Below are positions 20,805 to 29,810 of a DNA stretch of 57,432 nt, in pieces. The stretch spans positions 1-57,432 of the forward strand of contig JALDZX010000087.1 in assembly GCA_022813865.1 (NCBI GenBank). Direction: 5' to 3'. The position numbers and the translations under genes are program-made. The stretch comes from Xylographa opegraphella (taxonomy: Eukaryota). Positions within the stretch are counted from its first letter, which is position 1; each line of letters begins with the position of its first letter. Under the pieces are notes generated by a model. That model worked only from the letters and a program-made list of their open reading frames with translations, made no database searches and was not told where the DNA came from.

Positions 20805-21903
20805 ATGGCCCCCACCACAACCCCTCTCTCCTCCATCCCCACCCTCTCCCTTCTCTACAAGCTCAGGCACCTCCACCCTGCAGCCCCCTCTCCTTCTCTC
20901 CCCACCCCTTCCCCGGCCCTCAACAACACGATCCGCCTCGTCCGCACAGACATCACCACTCTCGCCGTCTCCGCCATCGTCAACGCCGCCAACACTTCCC
21001 GTAAGTCCCTTTCCCCTACAACCACCACGCGCACAGATTCACCCAGTCCCCAGTCCTCGGCGGTGGCGGCGTCGATGGCGCCATCCACTCCCGCGCCGGC
21101 TCCGGCCTCTACAACGAATGCCTGACCCTGCACGGCTGCGCGACCGGCGCGGCCAAAATGACCGGCGCGTACAATCTGCCCTGCGAGAAGATCATCCACG
21201 CCGTGGGGCCCGTGTACTGGCAAGCGAAAGAAGAGCGGCCCGGGCTGGAGCGCGAGCTGCTGGCCAGCTGCTACACGAAGAGCTTGGACCTCGCAGAGCA
21301 GGCCGGGTGCGCGAGTGTGGCGTTCAGCTCGCTCAGCACGGGGGTGTATGGCTACCCGAGCGGGGAGGCGGCTCAGGTGGCGTGCGAGGCGGTGAGGGGC
21401 TGGTTGGAGGCAGGCGAGAGGAAGGTGCGGAGTGTGGTGTTTTGTGTGTTTGAGCGCAAGGATGAGAAGGCGTATGAGGAGTGGTTGCCGTATGTTTCTA
21501 CGTGAGGGGGATGGGAGATGAGATAGGGTGGGGCTGACATTGTGGCAGGAAAATCTTCCCGCCTGTGGAGGAGGAGAGCAAGACGGCACATGAACATGAC
21601 GAGCTGGTTGAAGCAATGCCAGATCCACCTGCAGACGAGCCGCTTGGAGGAGGGAAGTCGGGTTCGTCGGCAGCGAAAGGTGTACCAGAGGTCGACGAGG
21701 GGTGGGAGGCTATTGAGAAGCCGGGGCAGGAGGCGGAAAATGGCTACGTGGAGGACGCCACACTCGAGAGATCGGAGATGACGGCGGAAGAGCAGATCGC
21801 GCTGGAAGAGGCGAATGAGGAGCGCCTGACAGCGCTGCAGACGACGGAGGCGGGTGGAGATCCACATCCGCCGACTGTAAATCCGTTGATGAAGGACTGG
21901 TAG
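20805..21903 (+). CDS. MacroD-type macrodomain protein (ADP-ribose / O-acetyl-ADP-ribose hydrolase) with acidic tail, 3 exons
   Basis: AIVNAANTS|LLGGGGVDGAIH assembled across intron 21001-21053, IIHAVGP, and SLSTGVYGYP. Second intron at about 21490-21548. Confidence 0.92.
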
Positions 21904-22408: not shown

Positions 22409-24610
22409 ATGGTGCAATGGAGCAAGCTCTTCAGCCGCAATGCCGGCGACCTGCACGACTTCCGCGACGAAGTCAGCCGGCGTAACACCCCCTCCCCCAA
22501 AAACCCCTCCTCTCAATCTATAATATAACTAATGATCGTCCCCAGTTATCCCGGTTGCGGACACCGAAGCCGTTCACTCTGCCTATCCCGCCGCCGAAGT
22601 CACGAAAGTGGCGCGGCGCCTCAAATACCAGATCGAGCAGGTGGTCCCCTGCGAGCTGGAGGAGTGGAAGATCACGAAGGCGAACTCGCCCGTCATCACG
22701 CGTAAGGTGATGCGGACGGCGAAGGAGGCGGGAGGCAAGGAATACAAGTCGTGCGTGGTGTACTGCCTGCTGGTATGCAAGCGCTGGTTTACGCGGCAGG
22801 CGGCGCTGGAGTTGTGGGACGCGGAGCTACATGAAGGGCGGGCGGTTGCGTGTGAGGTGTTGGCGAAGAAACTGTGAGAGGGGGTTTTTCTGTGCTGATG
22901 GGAGGGGACTCGGGGCTAATGAAGTGACCAGGATTGAGGACGAAGAGAGGGAGGAGTATCTCATGCAGGAGACGCTATTGAAGCGGTACTCGATCATCAT
23001 CAATGGCCAGGAAACGGAGGCAGCAAATGTTGTGGAGCGGGCGGTGGATATGCACGCCTTGCTGGTTATCGGATCCTCGGGATATCAGAAGTGTATATCG
23101 TACCTCTGGCGTGGATGGCTGGTCCAAAATGACGAGAAGCCTTCGTATTTCATCGCCTGGAAGAACAAGGCGAACCCGAATTACTGGGACCACTTCAACC
23201 CTGACCGGATGCGCGCTCCACAGTATCAGAATGCCGTCCAGGTCTTCTTCAGCGTCTTCTACCTCGTGCTGTACACCGTGGCCATCAATACCGTCAACGC
23301 GAGCGGCGATCTTGATGTTGTGGAGGGTATTGTCTACTTGATGACGGCTGGGTTCTTGTTCGATGAGATCTCGAAGATCTGGAAAGATGAGTCTTGCTGT
23401 CGCCGCTAGAGAAAGGAGTGTACTGATGGACAGGCACTGGGCACAACCTACATCGGTTTCTGGAATGTCTTCAACTCCGTGAGTCAACATCGAAGTAACT
23501 TAAGGGGCCAATATACTCACACGCGCGGAATAGACACTATATGCCTTGCTGACGGTCAGCTTCGTGACCCGCATGATCGCTCTAGGCAATCCTGCCGGCC
23601 ACGAGGAGCGAGCCCGCTTCAACGAATTGAGCTACAACTTCCTCGCCTTTAGCGCTCCCATGTTCTGGATACGACTCCTGCTGTATCTCGACACCTTCCG
23701 CTTCTTCGGCACCATGCTGGTGGTGCTGAAGGTCATGATGAAAGAGAGTCTCATCTTCTTCGCCTTGCTCGTCGTGATCTGTATCGGTTTCCTCCAGGCG
23801 TTCATTGGCATGAACCAAGTCGAAGCCTCCGGTAAGGTCACGGGATTCATCATTCAGGCGATGACGAACAGCGTCATGCAGTCTCCTGACTTCAGCGGCT
23901 TCGACAATTTCGCTCCGCCGTTTGGGATTATTTTGTACTACATTTATACTTTTGTTATAATGGTGAGGACATCAGCGACGTACCGTCCAAGTGCATCTTC
24001 GCTGACATGACTTGTAGGTCGTATTACTGAACATCTTGATTGCGTTATTCAACAGTGCATACGAGACAGTCACCGACAACTCGATCGACGAATGGATGGC
24101 ATTATTCGCCACAAAAACCATGCAGTTCGTTCGAGCACCCGACGAGTAAGTCCCATAACAGACACCATTGCCTCCGTGATATACTGACACCACCTCCCCC
24201 CCCCCAGAAACGTATTCATCCCCCCCTTCAACCTAATCGAAGTCTTCTGCCTAATCCTCCCCTTCGAATGGTGGATGGCCAGCGACACGTACGAGCGCTT
24301 GAACAACTACGTCATGGGCATCCTGTACTCCCCGCTGCTGCTGATCACAGCCTACATCGAAACGGCGCAGGCCCACACAGTGATGCGCAACCGGCAGCGT
24401 GGCGAGCAGGACGACGACACGGTGGAGGAGTGGGAGCATGAGGTCGCGGGCGAGGCACAGGACTTCGAGGCCGATGGCTGGGCCAAGGCCGTGGAGTCGA
24501 CGCGGCCGAATGTCGAGACCGATGCGGCGGTGCTAGAGATCAGGGAGCTGAAGAGGCAGTTGGCGGAGGTGAGGGAGTTGGTGGAGGGGGTGCGGAAGGC
24601 GGTTGGGTAG
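22409..24610 (+). CDS. YVC1: Vacuolar TRP cation channel Yvc1, 7 exons (one AT-AC intron)
   Basis: VPCELEE...KEAGG, VIGSSGYQKCISYLWRGW, RMRAPQYQN, multiple TM helices, FFGTMLVVLKVMMKES, LLNILIALFNSAY and APDENVFIPPFNLIE. The frame is continuous only if 23387-23437 (AT...AC) or a similar non-canonical intron is removed. Confidence 0.92.
23387..23437 (+). other. Non-canonical AT-AC spliceosomal intron (51 nt) in YVC1
   Basis: ATGAGT...TACTGAT...CAGGCAC. Removal joins TGG AAA G|TG GGC to give W-K-V-G-T-T-Y-I-G-F-W and deletes the in-frame TAG at 23407. Confidence 0.75.
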
Positions 24611-24823: not shown

Positions 24824-25195
24824 TATATTAGCGTGTGCAAAAGGCTTGCATTCTCTTGGCGCTCAAACTTTGCTCTCCCCCACCCACAAATGCACCGAAT
24901 TTCACTGAATTCACGTTTTTTAGGATTCCAGGTCCACCACTACCGTATAAATATATACATTCTAATAGACTTCTATTTATTTTAATTAAGGCTATCAATC
25001 GCGCGTATTCTTACTATCTATATGCGTAATAGATATAATATAATAATATCAAAATTTAATAATTTAATTAATACATTTAACGCATTAGGATCCATGTTAC
25101 TAAGTTATATAAGGAGGTATTCGGTGCATTTTTGGGTGGGGGAGAGCAAAGTTTGAGCGCCAAGAGAATGCAAGCCTTTTGCACATCGCAATATA
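24824..25195. mobile_element. MITE-like non-autonomous DNA transposon
   Basis: 67-bp inverted repeats at 24834-24900 and 25119-25185 with one mismatch, extendable imperfectly to flanking TA dinucleotides (24824-25, 25194-95). AT-rich non-coding interior. Confidence 0.8.
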
Positions 25196-25746: not shown

Positions 25747-28700
25747 TTATTCCTCCATGGCTGCCAGTTCCTTCGCGCGCAGCTCTCGAGCGTTCCGATC
25801 TTCTTCCGCCTTCAGCTGATCCGGCCGTCGAATAGCGATGTCCTTCGGCCTGTAATCGCTGAACGCCCACTTAAGCACCTTCTCTATTATGTAGCATCCG
25901 ATGTAGTCCAGAACCATAACCGAAGTCATCGTCATCTTGAACGCGTCAGAAAACTTGACCAAGCGAAGCTTTTCATTGAGCTCGGGAATGAATTCCGTTG
26001 AGCATGAAAATGCAACTCCGGAGACCAATATGATGCCCCAGTACATGCCACGATTCTCTCGAATACCTTCCCGGAATGGTCGGCCTTGGTAATTGATTGC
26101 AAAGGTGGAGATCTGTTGGATGAGTTGTAGGAGATAGACAGCGCTGTTCAGAAGCGATGGCTCAAACTCTCCCTCAAGGTCAACGTCAGCTTTACGTGGC
26201 TCAACCCACTGTACATAGTTGGAGATGTAAATTAGAGTGATGATATGTATGGCAAACTGCCCAAGGATAGATCCAATAATGTAAAAGTTGAAGATATATG
26301 GCTGGGGCCGTTCTTTTGAAAGCCCTTCCACGGACTGGTGAAGATGTCAGCATGAAATGAGAGTATAGGAGAATTTCCAGCCTACCTTTGCTCTTGAGAT
26401 TGACAAGAAACACACGCTCATGAGCATGCCACTGATTGTGACTTGACCATCTCCAAACTTAATGCCCTCCAGGTAAAGTACACTTAGGCTATATGCACTA
26501 ATCAGGCAGTTAAGAGCCAAGATCTTGTACATCTGTATGGTGGCGACAAGCGTACAACGACCTTGTCGGATGATGTTTGGAATTGCAATTACATTCGACA
26601 ACTTGCTGGTGAACGGGGCAGCAACTGAGGCATCACCGAGCTTGATAGTAGGTGGCTCGTTGTCGTCCAATTCTTGCTCCATCATCGAAGAAGTAAGCTT
26701 ATCAGCAAATCCAGCTGCAGCTTTCTGAGCCTTTGCTTGCTTCTGTTGTGCCGGGGTCAAAGCAGTATTGGCGTCCAACAATGCCTGCGCTCCAGGTGAA
26801 GTAATCGTCGGGATGCCGTTTGCTTTGTCCATCGCTCCAGAATTCACAGCTACTGCTCCTGCGGCACCTTTCTTTTCGGCTTCTCGAGCCATAGCCTTAT
26901 CATAGTGAGGATTGCTAGGGCCTGGAGGATATAAATGTGCGACTTGTAAAGGCACTGGAGGCGCTGGTTGGTTGAACCTCTTCATTAGACTCGCCTGCTT
27001 CTCATATATCTCTTTCATCTTGGTATTTCTGAAATGCTCGGCTATTCTGTTCAGGTCGTCCTGGGAGCCATTGAGAAGCGCAACTCCGATATGAGCTTGT
27101 TTCAATGCACCAACGTCGTTGGTACCATCTCCACACATTAGTGTTGTGTATCCCGCATCTTTGAGACCTAGAAGAATCTCTTCTTTCTGCTTTGGCGATA
27201 CACGAGCGTACACCCAGGTGTAGCGAAGTAATTGTTTGAGAGCTGCCTCCTCTTTGTATTTTGCTAGGGCATATCCGGTAACGCAGAGGTCCTTGCTTTC
27301 CAGAATATCCTCGGCAATAGGCTTAGATGGGTCTACGGGAATATTGACCTTGTCATCGATACTGCGCCAGACAAGCTTCTTGCCACTGTTGTCATTTTCT
27401 GGTGCGTCAAGGATAAGAACCTCGCGATCGACAATCTCTACCTGGCGAGCGACATGAACAGCAGTCAAAGGATTGTCCCCTGTTATCATCACCACACGGT
27501 GGCTGCTCTCGTTGAGCATCCGTACAGCTTGCTTGGCATCAGACTTGAGTGGACACTGTAGGACCAGAAAACCTGCGAATGTAAGATCCGCTTCAACTTC
27601 TTCCCTTTTGAGGTTGTTGATCCGAGTCTGCCCTATCTCAGTATCATTTGAGAGATATTTATAAGCAAGAGCCAAAACGCGACCACCATTACGTGTAAAG
27701 AATTTGAAAGTTTCTTCATAATTTGGAGGTGTATCTTTGAGCATTGTACGAATGGTCTCCGGAGCACCCTTGACACCAATGAAGGTGCTCTTGGTCTTTC
27801 GAGAAGTCGTGCGATCTGTGGTGACGACTGTGGCAACAGAGGATTGTCTCTTCAAAGCCGACGAGAATTGAAAGCGGCGCTTTATTTGCACCATGTCACC
27901 GGCTGTCGAACCGTTCGTAGCACTTGAGGTGAATTTACTTGTGAGCATGTCGCTTTTCCCAAGAGTCCAGCCAAGAGAAGTTAAAGTTGCCTTTTCCATT
28001 GGGTCTCCCACAATGTCACCCTCATCAAGTTTGACCAAGGCGTGAGCAGTGGCGAGAACGAGAGTAGTATGAAGTTCCACTTGCGAGACTGGTGTCACGT
28101 CGCTATGAGCGCCATCTTTCTCAATGTTCTTCGTGCTGGTACCCATGGAAAGTCCTGCAATGCCGTCCACGACTAAATTTTCGCCAGTAAGAGTCCCTGT
28201 CTTATCGAAACACGCAACGTCCACTCTACCCGCATACGGTATTCTGAAGGGTTCTGTACAGAATATGGCGTATTTACTCAAGGCTGCAAGACTAGTGTTG
28301 ACGGCGAGACTCAACTCCATTGGCAGTTCCGGAGGGACGACGCTCGTGATAATAAGAACACAATCGAGCAATAGTTTTGATCGTTTTCGATCTTTGCTAA
28401 CACCCTCCTGCCAAACATACCACGAAGCGGCAATTGCGAAGACAAGGAGGAAGAGAATGAAGAACAACGCTTCTGCGTTATTTGCCGATACCCTCTCCGT
28501 TGAGTATATCATGGTACGCACCAAGCTTCCTTGACTTGTTTCGAACCCGGTCTTGACCACAATCGCCATGGCTCCCTTATCTGGTGGCGGCTCCACTCCC
28601 GAAAGAACTTTGGGAACGGTATCCGGCGAATCTTCACTGGCAATTCCATGTGTGATTTGCAGCACTTTTGTTCCACCATAAAGGAACGCAAGCTTGTCCA

Positions 28701-29810
28701 AACCCTCTGGCTCGATCGAAACTTCACCGGGCCGCAGCTGTATCGAGTCCTTAAGTAACGGGGTACTTTCGCCAGATAGCATAGCCTCGTTAACAATCGC
28801 AGTTCCTTCTACAAGCAGCATATCACAAGCCACACCAGAGTCTTCCTTTGTGCGCCCAACAGATACAAGATCTCCCGGTAACAGCTTGTCGCTAGTCATC
28901 TGTGTCCATTTTTTTTCTCTGTATACCCAAATTTCGTACGGCTTTATACTCATCCCACGAAACTCATTCAAAGTCCTCTGCCTCTGCCATACCACAGTGC
29001 TTTCGAAAACGACCAACATGAACAATGTGAATAGAGAGTAGTACCAGTATTCATCAAGAAGCCATAGTCCAACACAGAATATCTGGAAGACGAAGAAGGG
29101 AGCCACGGCATGCTCTTTGAAGAGCTCCGAAAATGTTGGTACTGGAATGTCAAAGGTGTTGTCTCCATAATGTTGATGCACCTTATCGATCTCAGCCTTG
29201 GATGTCAACCCTTGAGACTCCTGGAATGTCCTAATGAGCGGCGCAGGATCCGAGTCGAGAGCATAGGCAAGAGGCGCAAAGCTATTCTGTCCTTCATCGT
29301 ATAGGAAACGCCTCTTCTGAAACAGGAAAGATGTGTTTCTTTTGCCACTAGTCTATCTTGTGTATTAGCCAATAGACCTTGTATTGCTAGCTATCGGTAC
29401 TGACCGTATCTCTATCAATTGTACATATTTCTGCCGAACCAGCGTTCGTCACTGGTATAACCTTGATAAGCTTTGCACTTGGAACACTACGGGCCTTGAC
29501 GGTAGTAAATAGAGCATCGATCTCAACGTTCCACTTGGTTACCAGCCATGCCAACGACTGCAGAGTGATTATCGTGCCAGCCCAGACGAAGGTCCACTCG
29601 GATCCAGCAATATACTGATTGTATCGCTCCTCAGAAAGGTAGAATGCGAAGAATACTGGCCATATGAATATGAAAGGCCATACATATGCATGTGCGTAAA
29701 ATGGAAGAGGGTTGTGAAGGGACGCCGACTGAATCTGGGGGTTGTCAACAAGAGGCGGCCTGTCATGCATCATTAGTCGTAGAGGCGTCAATGTTTGATT
29801 CCACGTACAT
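25747..29810 (-). CDS. SPF1: P5A-type ATPase Spf1/Cod1 (ER transmembrane-helix dislocase), 4 exons
   Basis: LSGES A-domain motif, PPELP (P5A signature), DKTGTLT phosphorylation site, MITGDN and GDGTNDVGAL. Start codon split AT|G by intron 29760-29808. Confidence 0.96.

Follow-up and report, generated by a model that had tools for sequence, protein, structure and literature searches.

We examined a 57,432-nucleotide (nt) stretch of the genome of Xylographa opegraphella, hereafter the window (contig JALDZX010000087.1 of assembly GCA_022813865.1, positions 1 to 57,432 of the forward strand). It carries a gene for a vacuolar transient receptor potential (TRP) channel of the YVC1/TRPY1 type. The third and fourth exons of this gene are separated by a segment of 51 nt that begins with AT and ends with AC, and that is, with good probability, an intron removed by the major spliceosome. 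The gene and the elements around this segment are as follows.

22409 to 24610, plus strand: YVC1/TRPY1-type vacuolar TRP channel gene; seven-exon spliced model of 618 amino acids, from Pfam and orthologue alignment.
22409-22481, 22546-22873, 22932-23386, 23438-23478, 23534-23962, 24018-24145 and 24208-24610, plus strand: exons of the YVC1 model.
22932 to 23386, plus strand: exon 3, ending with ...FDEISKIWK and G, the first base of a valine codon.
23387 to 23437, plus strand: probable AT-AC intron of 51 nt, phase 1, placed by comparison with orthologous loci (69 nt against 18 nt) and by boundary enumeration.
23387 to 23392, plus strand: putative 5' splice site ATGAGT, a U2-type GTGAGT with A at +1, from the sequence and from 19 of 19 AT-type clusters with A at +1.
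23407 to 23409, plus strand: in-frame TAG within the probable intron, from the sequence and its open frames.
23422 to 23427, plus strand: branch-site motif ACTGAT (CTRAY), with CTGAT at 23423-23427 and the candidate branch A at 23426, 11 nt before the last intron base.
23431 to 23433, plus strand: CAG, presumably bypassed, 7 nt past the branch A and in phase with none of the GT or GC donors.
23436 to 23437, plus strand: putative 3' terminal AC, from the sequence and the enumeration, with an AC-compatible end in four relatives.
23438 to 23478, plus strand: small exon of 41 nt, whose TG finishes the valine codon and is followed by G-T-T-Y-I-G-F-W-N-V-F-N-S.
23479 to 23533, plus strand: next intron, an ordinary GT-AG intron of 55 nt (GTGAGT...AATAG).

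A first-pass annotation made from the letters of this stretch had placed ATGAGT at 23387-23392, CTGAT at 23423-23427, CAG at 23431-23433 and AC at 23436-23437, and these coordinates stand. One correction concerns the small exon and the following intron, which run from 23438 to 23478 and from 23479 to 23533.

The 151-residue translation of 22933-23385 retrieves 1277 homologues at E <= 0.001 in a protein search. The top match, P0001, is 100% identical and is the window's own deposited model, entered as a "hypothetical protein" of Xylographa opegraphella. Pfam recognises in it LHD_TRPY1 (E = 9.6e-80), YVC1_C (E = 6.2e-11) and PKD_channel (E = 2.5e-05). The same three families are found in the orthologue from Lepraria, P0007, which also matches the solved structure of yeast YVC1, 6WHG, with E = 5.8e-130. 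The protein has the N-terminal linker helical domain of TRPY1 and a YVC1-like transmembrane and C-terminal region; the gene is a YVC1/TRPY1 vacuolar TRP channel, and the Pfam families and the match to 6WHG bear out its initial naming as such.

When the AT-AC segment and the five ordinary introns are taken out, the 618-residue model has no internal stop. Its identity to P0007 is 74.5% over 616 aligned residues, and to four other orthologues 73.7% (P0031), 70.0% (P0055), 70.5% (P0099) and 67.5% (P0091). The 70 alignment columns around the junction are free of gaps in four of the five comparisons, the one with P0007 among them. Identity to the orthologues continues 3' of the in-frame TAG, and the coding part downstream of this stop is therefore still constrained as protein. 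The five ordinary introns start with GTAACA, GTGAGA, GTGAGT, GTGAGG and GTAAGT, and all end with AG.

On the plus strand, the frame coding ...LMTAGFLFDEISKIWK reads ...FDEISKIWK (tgg aaa at 23380-23385) and then runs through gat gag tct tgc tgt cgc cgc to the TAG at 23407-23409. The same frame is open again past the TAG, coding ...ALGTTYIGFWNVFNS up to the ordinary GTGAGT donor at 23479. Were the segment retained, the TAG would end the protein after what we take to be the second membrane helix.

What the unbroken coding sequence looks like is seen in other fungi. A scan of metagenome contigs gave 214 loci, of which the best 80 by tblastn score, all fungal, were compared; this ranking probably favours intron-poor genes, and the 80 loci show the ancestral coding sequence, not the frequency of introns. 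In 63 of the 80, the WK codons are separated from GGN-TTC-TGG by exactly 18 nt, typically GTN GGN CGN TAC TAC ATY. Fifteen further loci (13 + 2) are contiguous by translation, and L060 and L071 start downstream of the site. None of the 78 informative loci among these best 80 of 214 has an intron here: the window has 69 nt where 78 of 78 have 18 contiguous nt. As the 78 intronless loci fix the boundaries independently, the AT and AC ends, the match to a U2 donor from +3 to +6 and the spacing of the branch site are more than chance. The motif WK[VI]G stands at the junction in 110 of the 120 homologues listed, so that the WKVG..YIGFW pattern given for fungal Yvc1 in the first-pass annotation proves to be real.

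In the window the YVC1 gene has six introns, and the matches in most other fungal loci barely exceed the coding length. The 41-nt exon and the GT-AG intron at 23479-23533 are also lineage-specific: in the metagenome loci the ...FWN.FN block runs on without an intron. A scan of prokaryote genomes returned two fungal YVC1 fragments, L081 and L082, 56-59% identical, in assemblies labelled bacterial (an Actinomycetes metagenome-assembled genome and a Pedobacter draft); they are most likely eukaryotic contamination. L082 stops short of the site, and L081, which gave no match to the junction motif, was left out of the evaluation.

Excision of 23387-23437 leaves aaa G|TG GGC, which reads Val-Gly. If the 51-nt deletion is slid by one base, the codon becomes Leu or Glu depending on the direction, and the ends are not known splice pairs. 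We enumerated the full set of 1144 boundary pairs compatible with the downstream frame, with the 5' end between 23330 and 23407 and the 3' end between 23409 and 23452. GT-AG, GC-AG or AT-AC ends occur in 18 of them, and three of the 18 keep ...ISKIWK. The first, AT-AC 23387-23437 (51 nt), gives W-K-V-G with zero added residues. The second, AT-AC 23387-23431 (45 nt), lengthens the protein by two residues, and its end lies 5 nt from the branch A. The third, GT-AG 23391-23411, spans 21 nt and is too short for an intron. Canonical introns with a 5' end upstream of 23380 (GT 23332 or GC 23347 to AG 23433) would delete the conserved ...YLMTAGFLFDEISKIWK block, which is kept by every homologue among those listed.

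Of the known splice-site pairs, AT-AC 23387-23437 alone thus gives back W-K-V-G without a change from the ancestral length, which no GT-AG or GC-AG pair achieves. The mature coding sequence, as given by the 78 intronless loci and the enumeration, sets the boundaries at AT 23387 and AC 23437. Two claims made from the letters hold up in this analysis: removal of 23387-23437 yields W-K-V-G, and the GT dinucleotides at 23391, 23399 and 23418 do not join in frame to the CAG (both 23418 and 23420 were checked). A twin intron, two canonical introns nested in one another, was dismissed on size alone, as 51 nt are too short for two introns. Searched by blastn-short against the whole window, and the window only, the 51 nt find themselves and chance matches of 8-12 nt, with no sign there of an introner or repeat origin.

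Related proteins allow the ends of the segment to be followed in other species. The ends given for relatives are degenerate codons back-translated from read-through or mis-spliced protein models, not DNA; a second protein search was limited to short proteins, which are fragments of unspliced open reading frames from assemblies. Nineteen clusters, that of the window included, have Asp directly after WK and then run into unrelated residues or an early stop; their identity in the upstream exon is 65-100%. We refer to them as AT-type. An Asp codon is GAY; with its G supplied by the exon, it places A at intron position +1 and T or C at +2. The residue after Asp is Glu in seven clusters (window included), Lys in eight, Arg in three and Asn in one (P0004, a spliced model). 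The corresponding codon patterns, AY-GAR (7), AY-AAR (8) and AY-MGN (3), are compatible with donors ATGAGT, ATAAGT and ATAGGT, respectively, in 18 of the 19 clusters.

Three proteins, P0004, P0128 and P0137, enter the exon after the intron in a shifted frame, through which the 3' end can be back-translated: in P0004 the end can only be AC, and P0128 and P0137 leave the choice of AC or AT. In P0002 it reads ...CAY|TGG, back-translated by hand. The inferred intron length is 50 nt in each of P0002, P0128 and P0137 and 51 nt in the window, a difference as expected of non-coding sequence. These three also carry a Leu-Thr pair (CTN ACN, containing CTNAC) that puts a branch-type A 11 nt before the last intron base, again by hand. 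The interior of the segment is free to vary and to change length; its first six and last two bases do not show such variation. The termini, as judged from protein read-throughs, are conserved in orthologous genes. Conservation of AT...AC in relatives had been proposed as a check at the outset, and A at +1 is found in 19 of 19 clusters, with an AC-compatible 3' end in four.

The deposited gene models of the closest named species show how the site is handled by annotation. The four proteins, from X. opegraphella, X. bjoerkii, X. pallens and Lambiella insularis, have WK-D in common, after which each goes its own way. P0001 lacks the small exon and a further nine residues, with two residues where our model has 23 (597 against 618 amino acids), and is left without the conserved YIGFWNVFN block. 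In P0002 the intron is translated as if it were coding; P0003 takes a GT four bases in as its donor, together with an AG inside the exon after the intron; P0004 reads that exon out of frame. All four confirm the expectation that the site would mislead gene predictors. The start of what we take to be a membrane helix is missing or scrambled in these models. Annotation pipelines restricted to GT-AG and GC-AG ends will make the same mistake in all genomes of the group.

Among the alternatives, the one that fares best accepts an intron and moves its main splice to another pair, either GA-AG 23386-23433, giving W-K-A-L-G, or the nearer AC, 23387-23431, giving W-K-E-A-L-G. Both are in frame, and CAG 23431-23433 looks like an ordinary acceptor. 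Either would nonetheless insert one or two residues at a place whose 18-nt spacing is fixed in 78 of 78 informative loci. GATGAG is without T at +2, and we know of no case in which GA-AG works as a pair in fungi. The AC at 23431 and the CAG lie 5 and 7 nt past the branch A, nearer to it than the 11-20 nt seen in the gene's other introns. Back-translated by hand, the last 9-11 intron bases of P0128 and P0137 have no room for an AG, and a terminal AY is kept. Annotated GA-AG sites are mentioned in the portion of PMC7072748 used here. We hold a main splice by either of these pairs to be improbable.

A second alternative leaves the 51 nt in the transcript, the gene being a pseudogene or coding for a truncated protein that ends at the TAG. 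The in-frame stop at 23407-23409 would suit it. The downstream exons, on the other hand, are open, about 70-75% identical to distant orthologues, and hold all the conserved blocks. The interruption is also kept in 19 clusters down to 65% identity between conserved flanking exons, and its interior varies (50 against 51 nt) in a way that its first six and last two bases do not. Retention of the segment appears to us less probable still.

An error of assembly or sequencing that masks an ordinary GT-AG intron is very unlikely: against it stand the need for two separate errors (23387 and 23437), the same +1 A in independent assemblies (three other named species and 14 further clusters), an AC-compatible end in four of these 17, and four related deposited models that fail at the junction in four different ways.

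The signals of the segment are those of the major spliceosome. The donor ATGAGT agrees from +2 to +6 with the U2-type GTRAGT and not with the U12-type /ATATCCTT, and an ordinary CTRAY branch site (ACTGAT) lies at the usual distance. From the branch A to the 3' end there are 11 nt. Four of the gene's other introns have 13, 12, 12 and 20 nt, and the sixth has an ACTCAC motif with its branch A 14 nt from the 3' end. The first reading of donor and branch site as U2-like, not U12-like, agrees with ATGAGT and with ACTGAT at 11 nt. The donor region ATGAGTCT and the branch region GTACTGATGG of the window intron contain nothing like the donor ATATCCTT and no TCCTTAAC-like branch site, and Asp-Ile, expected after WK from a U12 donor ATATCC, occurs in 0 of 19 AT-type clusters. 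An Rfam scan of the 57-kb window gave zero matches, a window so small that it says little about the small nuclear RNAs (snRNAs) of the minor spliceosome.

According to the part of PMC10639083 that we draw on, convincing minor introns or snRNAs have not been found in Ascomycota, and the major spliceosome is therefore the expected agent. A U12-type intron, removed by the minor spliceosome, is as remote a prospect as an assembly error: most AT-AC introns of animals and plants are of this type, going by the sections of PMC7072748 and PMC1557818 cited here, yet donor, branch site, the 19 clusters and what is reported for Ascomycota all speak against it.

Versions of the intron with GT are found in other lineages. 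Five clusters (P0136, P0171, P0202, P0207 and P0226) read WK-G, which fits G|GTATG, G|GTGCN or G|GTCAR, a GT donor at the same phase-1 site. P0226 is the only one of the five that is readable at the 3' end, which is AG or TC. By back-translation, the two ends of the intron seem to change together: where the 3' end can be read, it is compatible with AG in the GT version and with AC in the AT version.

In four more clusters (P0126, P0174, P0140 and P0187), WK-V-S-H, WK-V-G-P or WK-V-C-A stands at the junction, residues compatible with a phase-0 GT donor that starts one base further upstream (AAA|GTRAGT, GTAGGT or GTATGT). For P0140, a phase-0 GT-AG intron fits if the Arg codon before the next exon is AGG (by hand), and a phase-1 placement allowed no AG or AC end. 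The phase-0 reading is insecure for P0140, which comes from a contig of 1224 nt, and for P0187, which sits on a very long branch. Side by side, the phase-0 GT forms and the phase-1 GT and AT forms look like a one-base intron shift between related lineages; losing the A of G|ATAGGT would create |GTAGGT.

We built trees from the upstream exon with FastTree (193 rows) and with a quick search in IQ-TREE (65 rows). In both, the AT-type rows fall into few compact groups, one of which consists of Xylographa, Lambiella and P0005, and the clustering of the AT label exceeds all of 500 shuffles. One group has five intronless rows, P0078, P0099, P0111, P0150 and P0180, interspersed with AT rows; should this grouping be correct, they would have lost the intron later. 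The intron is old. Most fungi have none at its site, some relatives have a GT version, and a group of lichen-fungus lineages, Xylographa and Lambiella among them, has the AT version.

From comparative evidence we conclude that 23387-23437 is probably a spliceosomal AT-AC intron removed by the major, U2-type spliceosome, and infer from its sequence that the RNA is cut at exactly these bases. The second catalytic step of splicing involves an interaction between the two terminal bases of an intron. At this site, U1 and U6 would recognise AAG|AUGAGU nearly like a normal donor, and position 23426, the A of CUGAU, would serve as the branch point. During the second step, where the first and last intron bases must pair, the A at +1 would meet a C at the last base, in place of the normal G with G. 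The +1 A would thereby disfavour the nearby CAG, four bases upstream, and favour the AC at the usual distance, so that the exons would join after AC, 11 nt from the branch A. The messenger RNA would then encode ...W-K-V-G-T-T-Y-I-G-F-W..., the ancestral sequence and length, in a loop that we take to lie before the third membrane helix of the channel.

Several points weigh against this conclusion. The ends in relatives are ambiguous as back-translated, with T or C at +2 and, in three of four, C or T at the last base; P0004 holds a predicted splice of unplaced position. The second AC, at 23430-23431, could be used in part. The absence of minor snRNAs may be taken here on the literature for Ascomycota in general. 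The backbone of the tree is without resolution, and the tree speaks neither for nor against the AT form having arisen once. Finally, A/C double mutants splice less well in the experiments described in the consulted part of PMC1557818, and by analogy an AT-AC intron in an apparently needed gene would carry an unexplained cost.

The paired change of first and last base is known from engineered introns: Parker and Siliciano (1993, as cited in PMC5029451 and PMC1557818) reportedly showed that an intron with A in place of G at +1 can be rescued by replacing G with C at its last base. The sections of PMC1557818 used here describe the same rescue in yeast and human introns, with lower efficiency. The intron of the window would embody the same paired change from GT-AG, with the same proposed reason for bypassing an AG; the engineered introns are less efficient laboratory mutants, whereas this one is a natural intron kept across many lineages.

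U2-type AT-AC introns also occur naturally. In the same portion of PMC1557818, 24 type II AT-AC introns are counted among about 610,000 introns of five species, and such introns are described as conserved in orthologues. The animal cases cited there, in human SCN4A and SCN5A and in human and fly TAF2, resemble the present one in their U2-type donor, in ends kept in orthologues and in being very rare. The consensus for U2-type AT-AC donors is given as /ATAAGT in the part of PMC5029451 at hand; relatives of the window have ATAAGT-like donors that match it, and the window itself has ATGAGT. Unlike the animal introns, this one belongs to a filamentous ascomycete, is 51 nt long, lies at a site that is mostly intronless in fungi and has GT versions in sister lineages; its splicing is predicted from sequence.

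In fungi, AT-AC is treated as rare in annotations, at least in the passages of PMC7072748 cited. The available part of PMC4324775 reports AT-AC in 69 of 14305 RNA-seq junctions of Trichoderma longibrachiatum, with a peak of branch offsets at 11-14 nt, and type II AT-AC introns are hypothesised for xylanase genes of filamentous fungi in the section of PMC1557818 consulted. These share organism class and boundary pair with the intron of the window, and the branch offset of 11-14 nt compares with 11 nt here. As presented in those excerpts, they are counts or hypotheses without orthologue comparison, whereas here the ends are traced across lineages, beside GT versions.

The nested AT-AC intron of RPL30 in Saccharomyces cerevisiae (PMC5029451, same part) likewise occurs in an ascomycete without a minor spliceosome. 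There the AT-AC splice is described as a side product of 1-2%, with a donor near neither consensus and no needed protein. In YVC1, by contrast, the full channel could be made only through AT-AC, and the donor matches the U2 type well. With U12-type AT-AC introns, the present one has only the terminal dinucleotides in common: it lacks their donor and branch consensus, and its host group is without the machinery according to the literature. A limited literature search on AT-AC introns in Lecanoromycetes and filamentous fungi found no earlier description of this YVC1 intron.

Other features lie near the gene. About 200 nt past the YVC1 stop is an inverted repeat, 24824-24900 and 25119-25195, with arms of 77 nt that are 94% complementary and 218 nt apart; this element (24824-25195) may be a small hairpin-forming or transposon-like one. 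On the minus strand, at 25747-29352, two long open frames encode a large P-type ATPase, with DKTGTLT and GDGTNDV in the translation; an intron appears around 26347. On the plus strand, the translation of the open frame at 21005-21505 resembles a protein with a macro (ADP-ribose-binding) domain.

The U2-type AT-AC intron is a known kind; new are this member, its conservation and its GT counterparts at the same site. It offers a rare natural case, in fungi, of the paired change of first and last intron base, an interaction first shown with yeast mutants. Being small (51 nt), it suits two questions, namely how AC is chosen over a nearer AG and what this costs in expression. The first-pass annotation proposed that the intron could act as an inefficient or regulated step. 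It is conceivable, if rather unlikely, that selection maintains the AT-AC form because splicing is slow or conditional there: as introns with A and C at their ends go through the second step less efficiently, some transcripts would retain the intron, hit the stop and be degraded, tuning the dose of the vacuolar calcium-release channel in a whole group of lichen-forming fungi. If this were true, the distance of 11 nt from branch to end, which all four readable lineages share, would belong to a tuned mechanism, and the mixture of GT and AT at one site would form a natural series for the co-evolution of intron ends.

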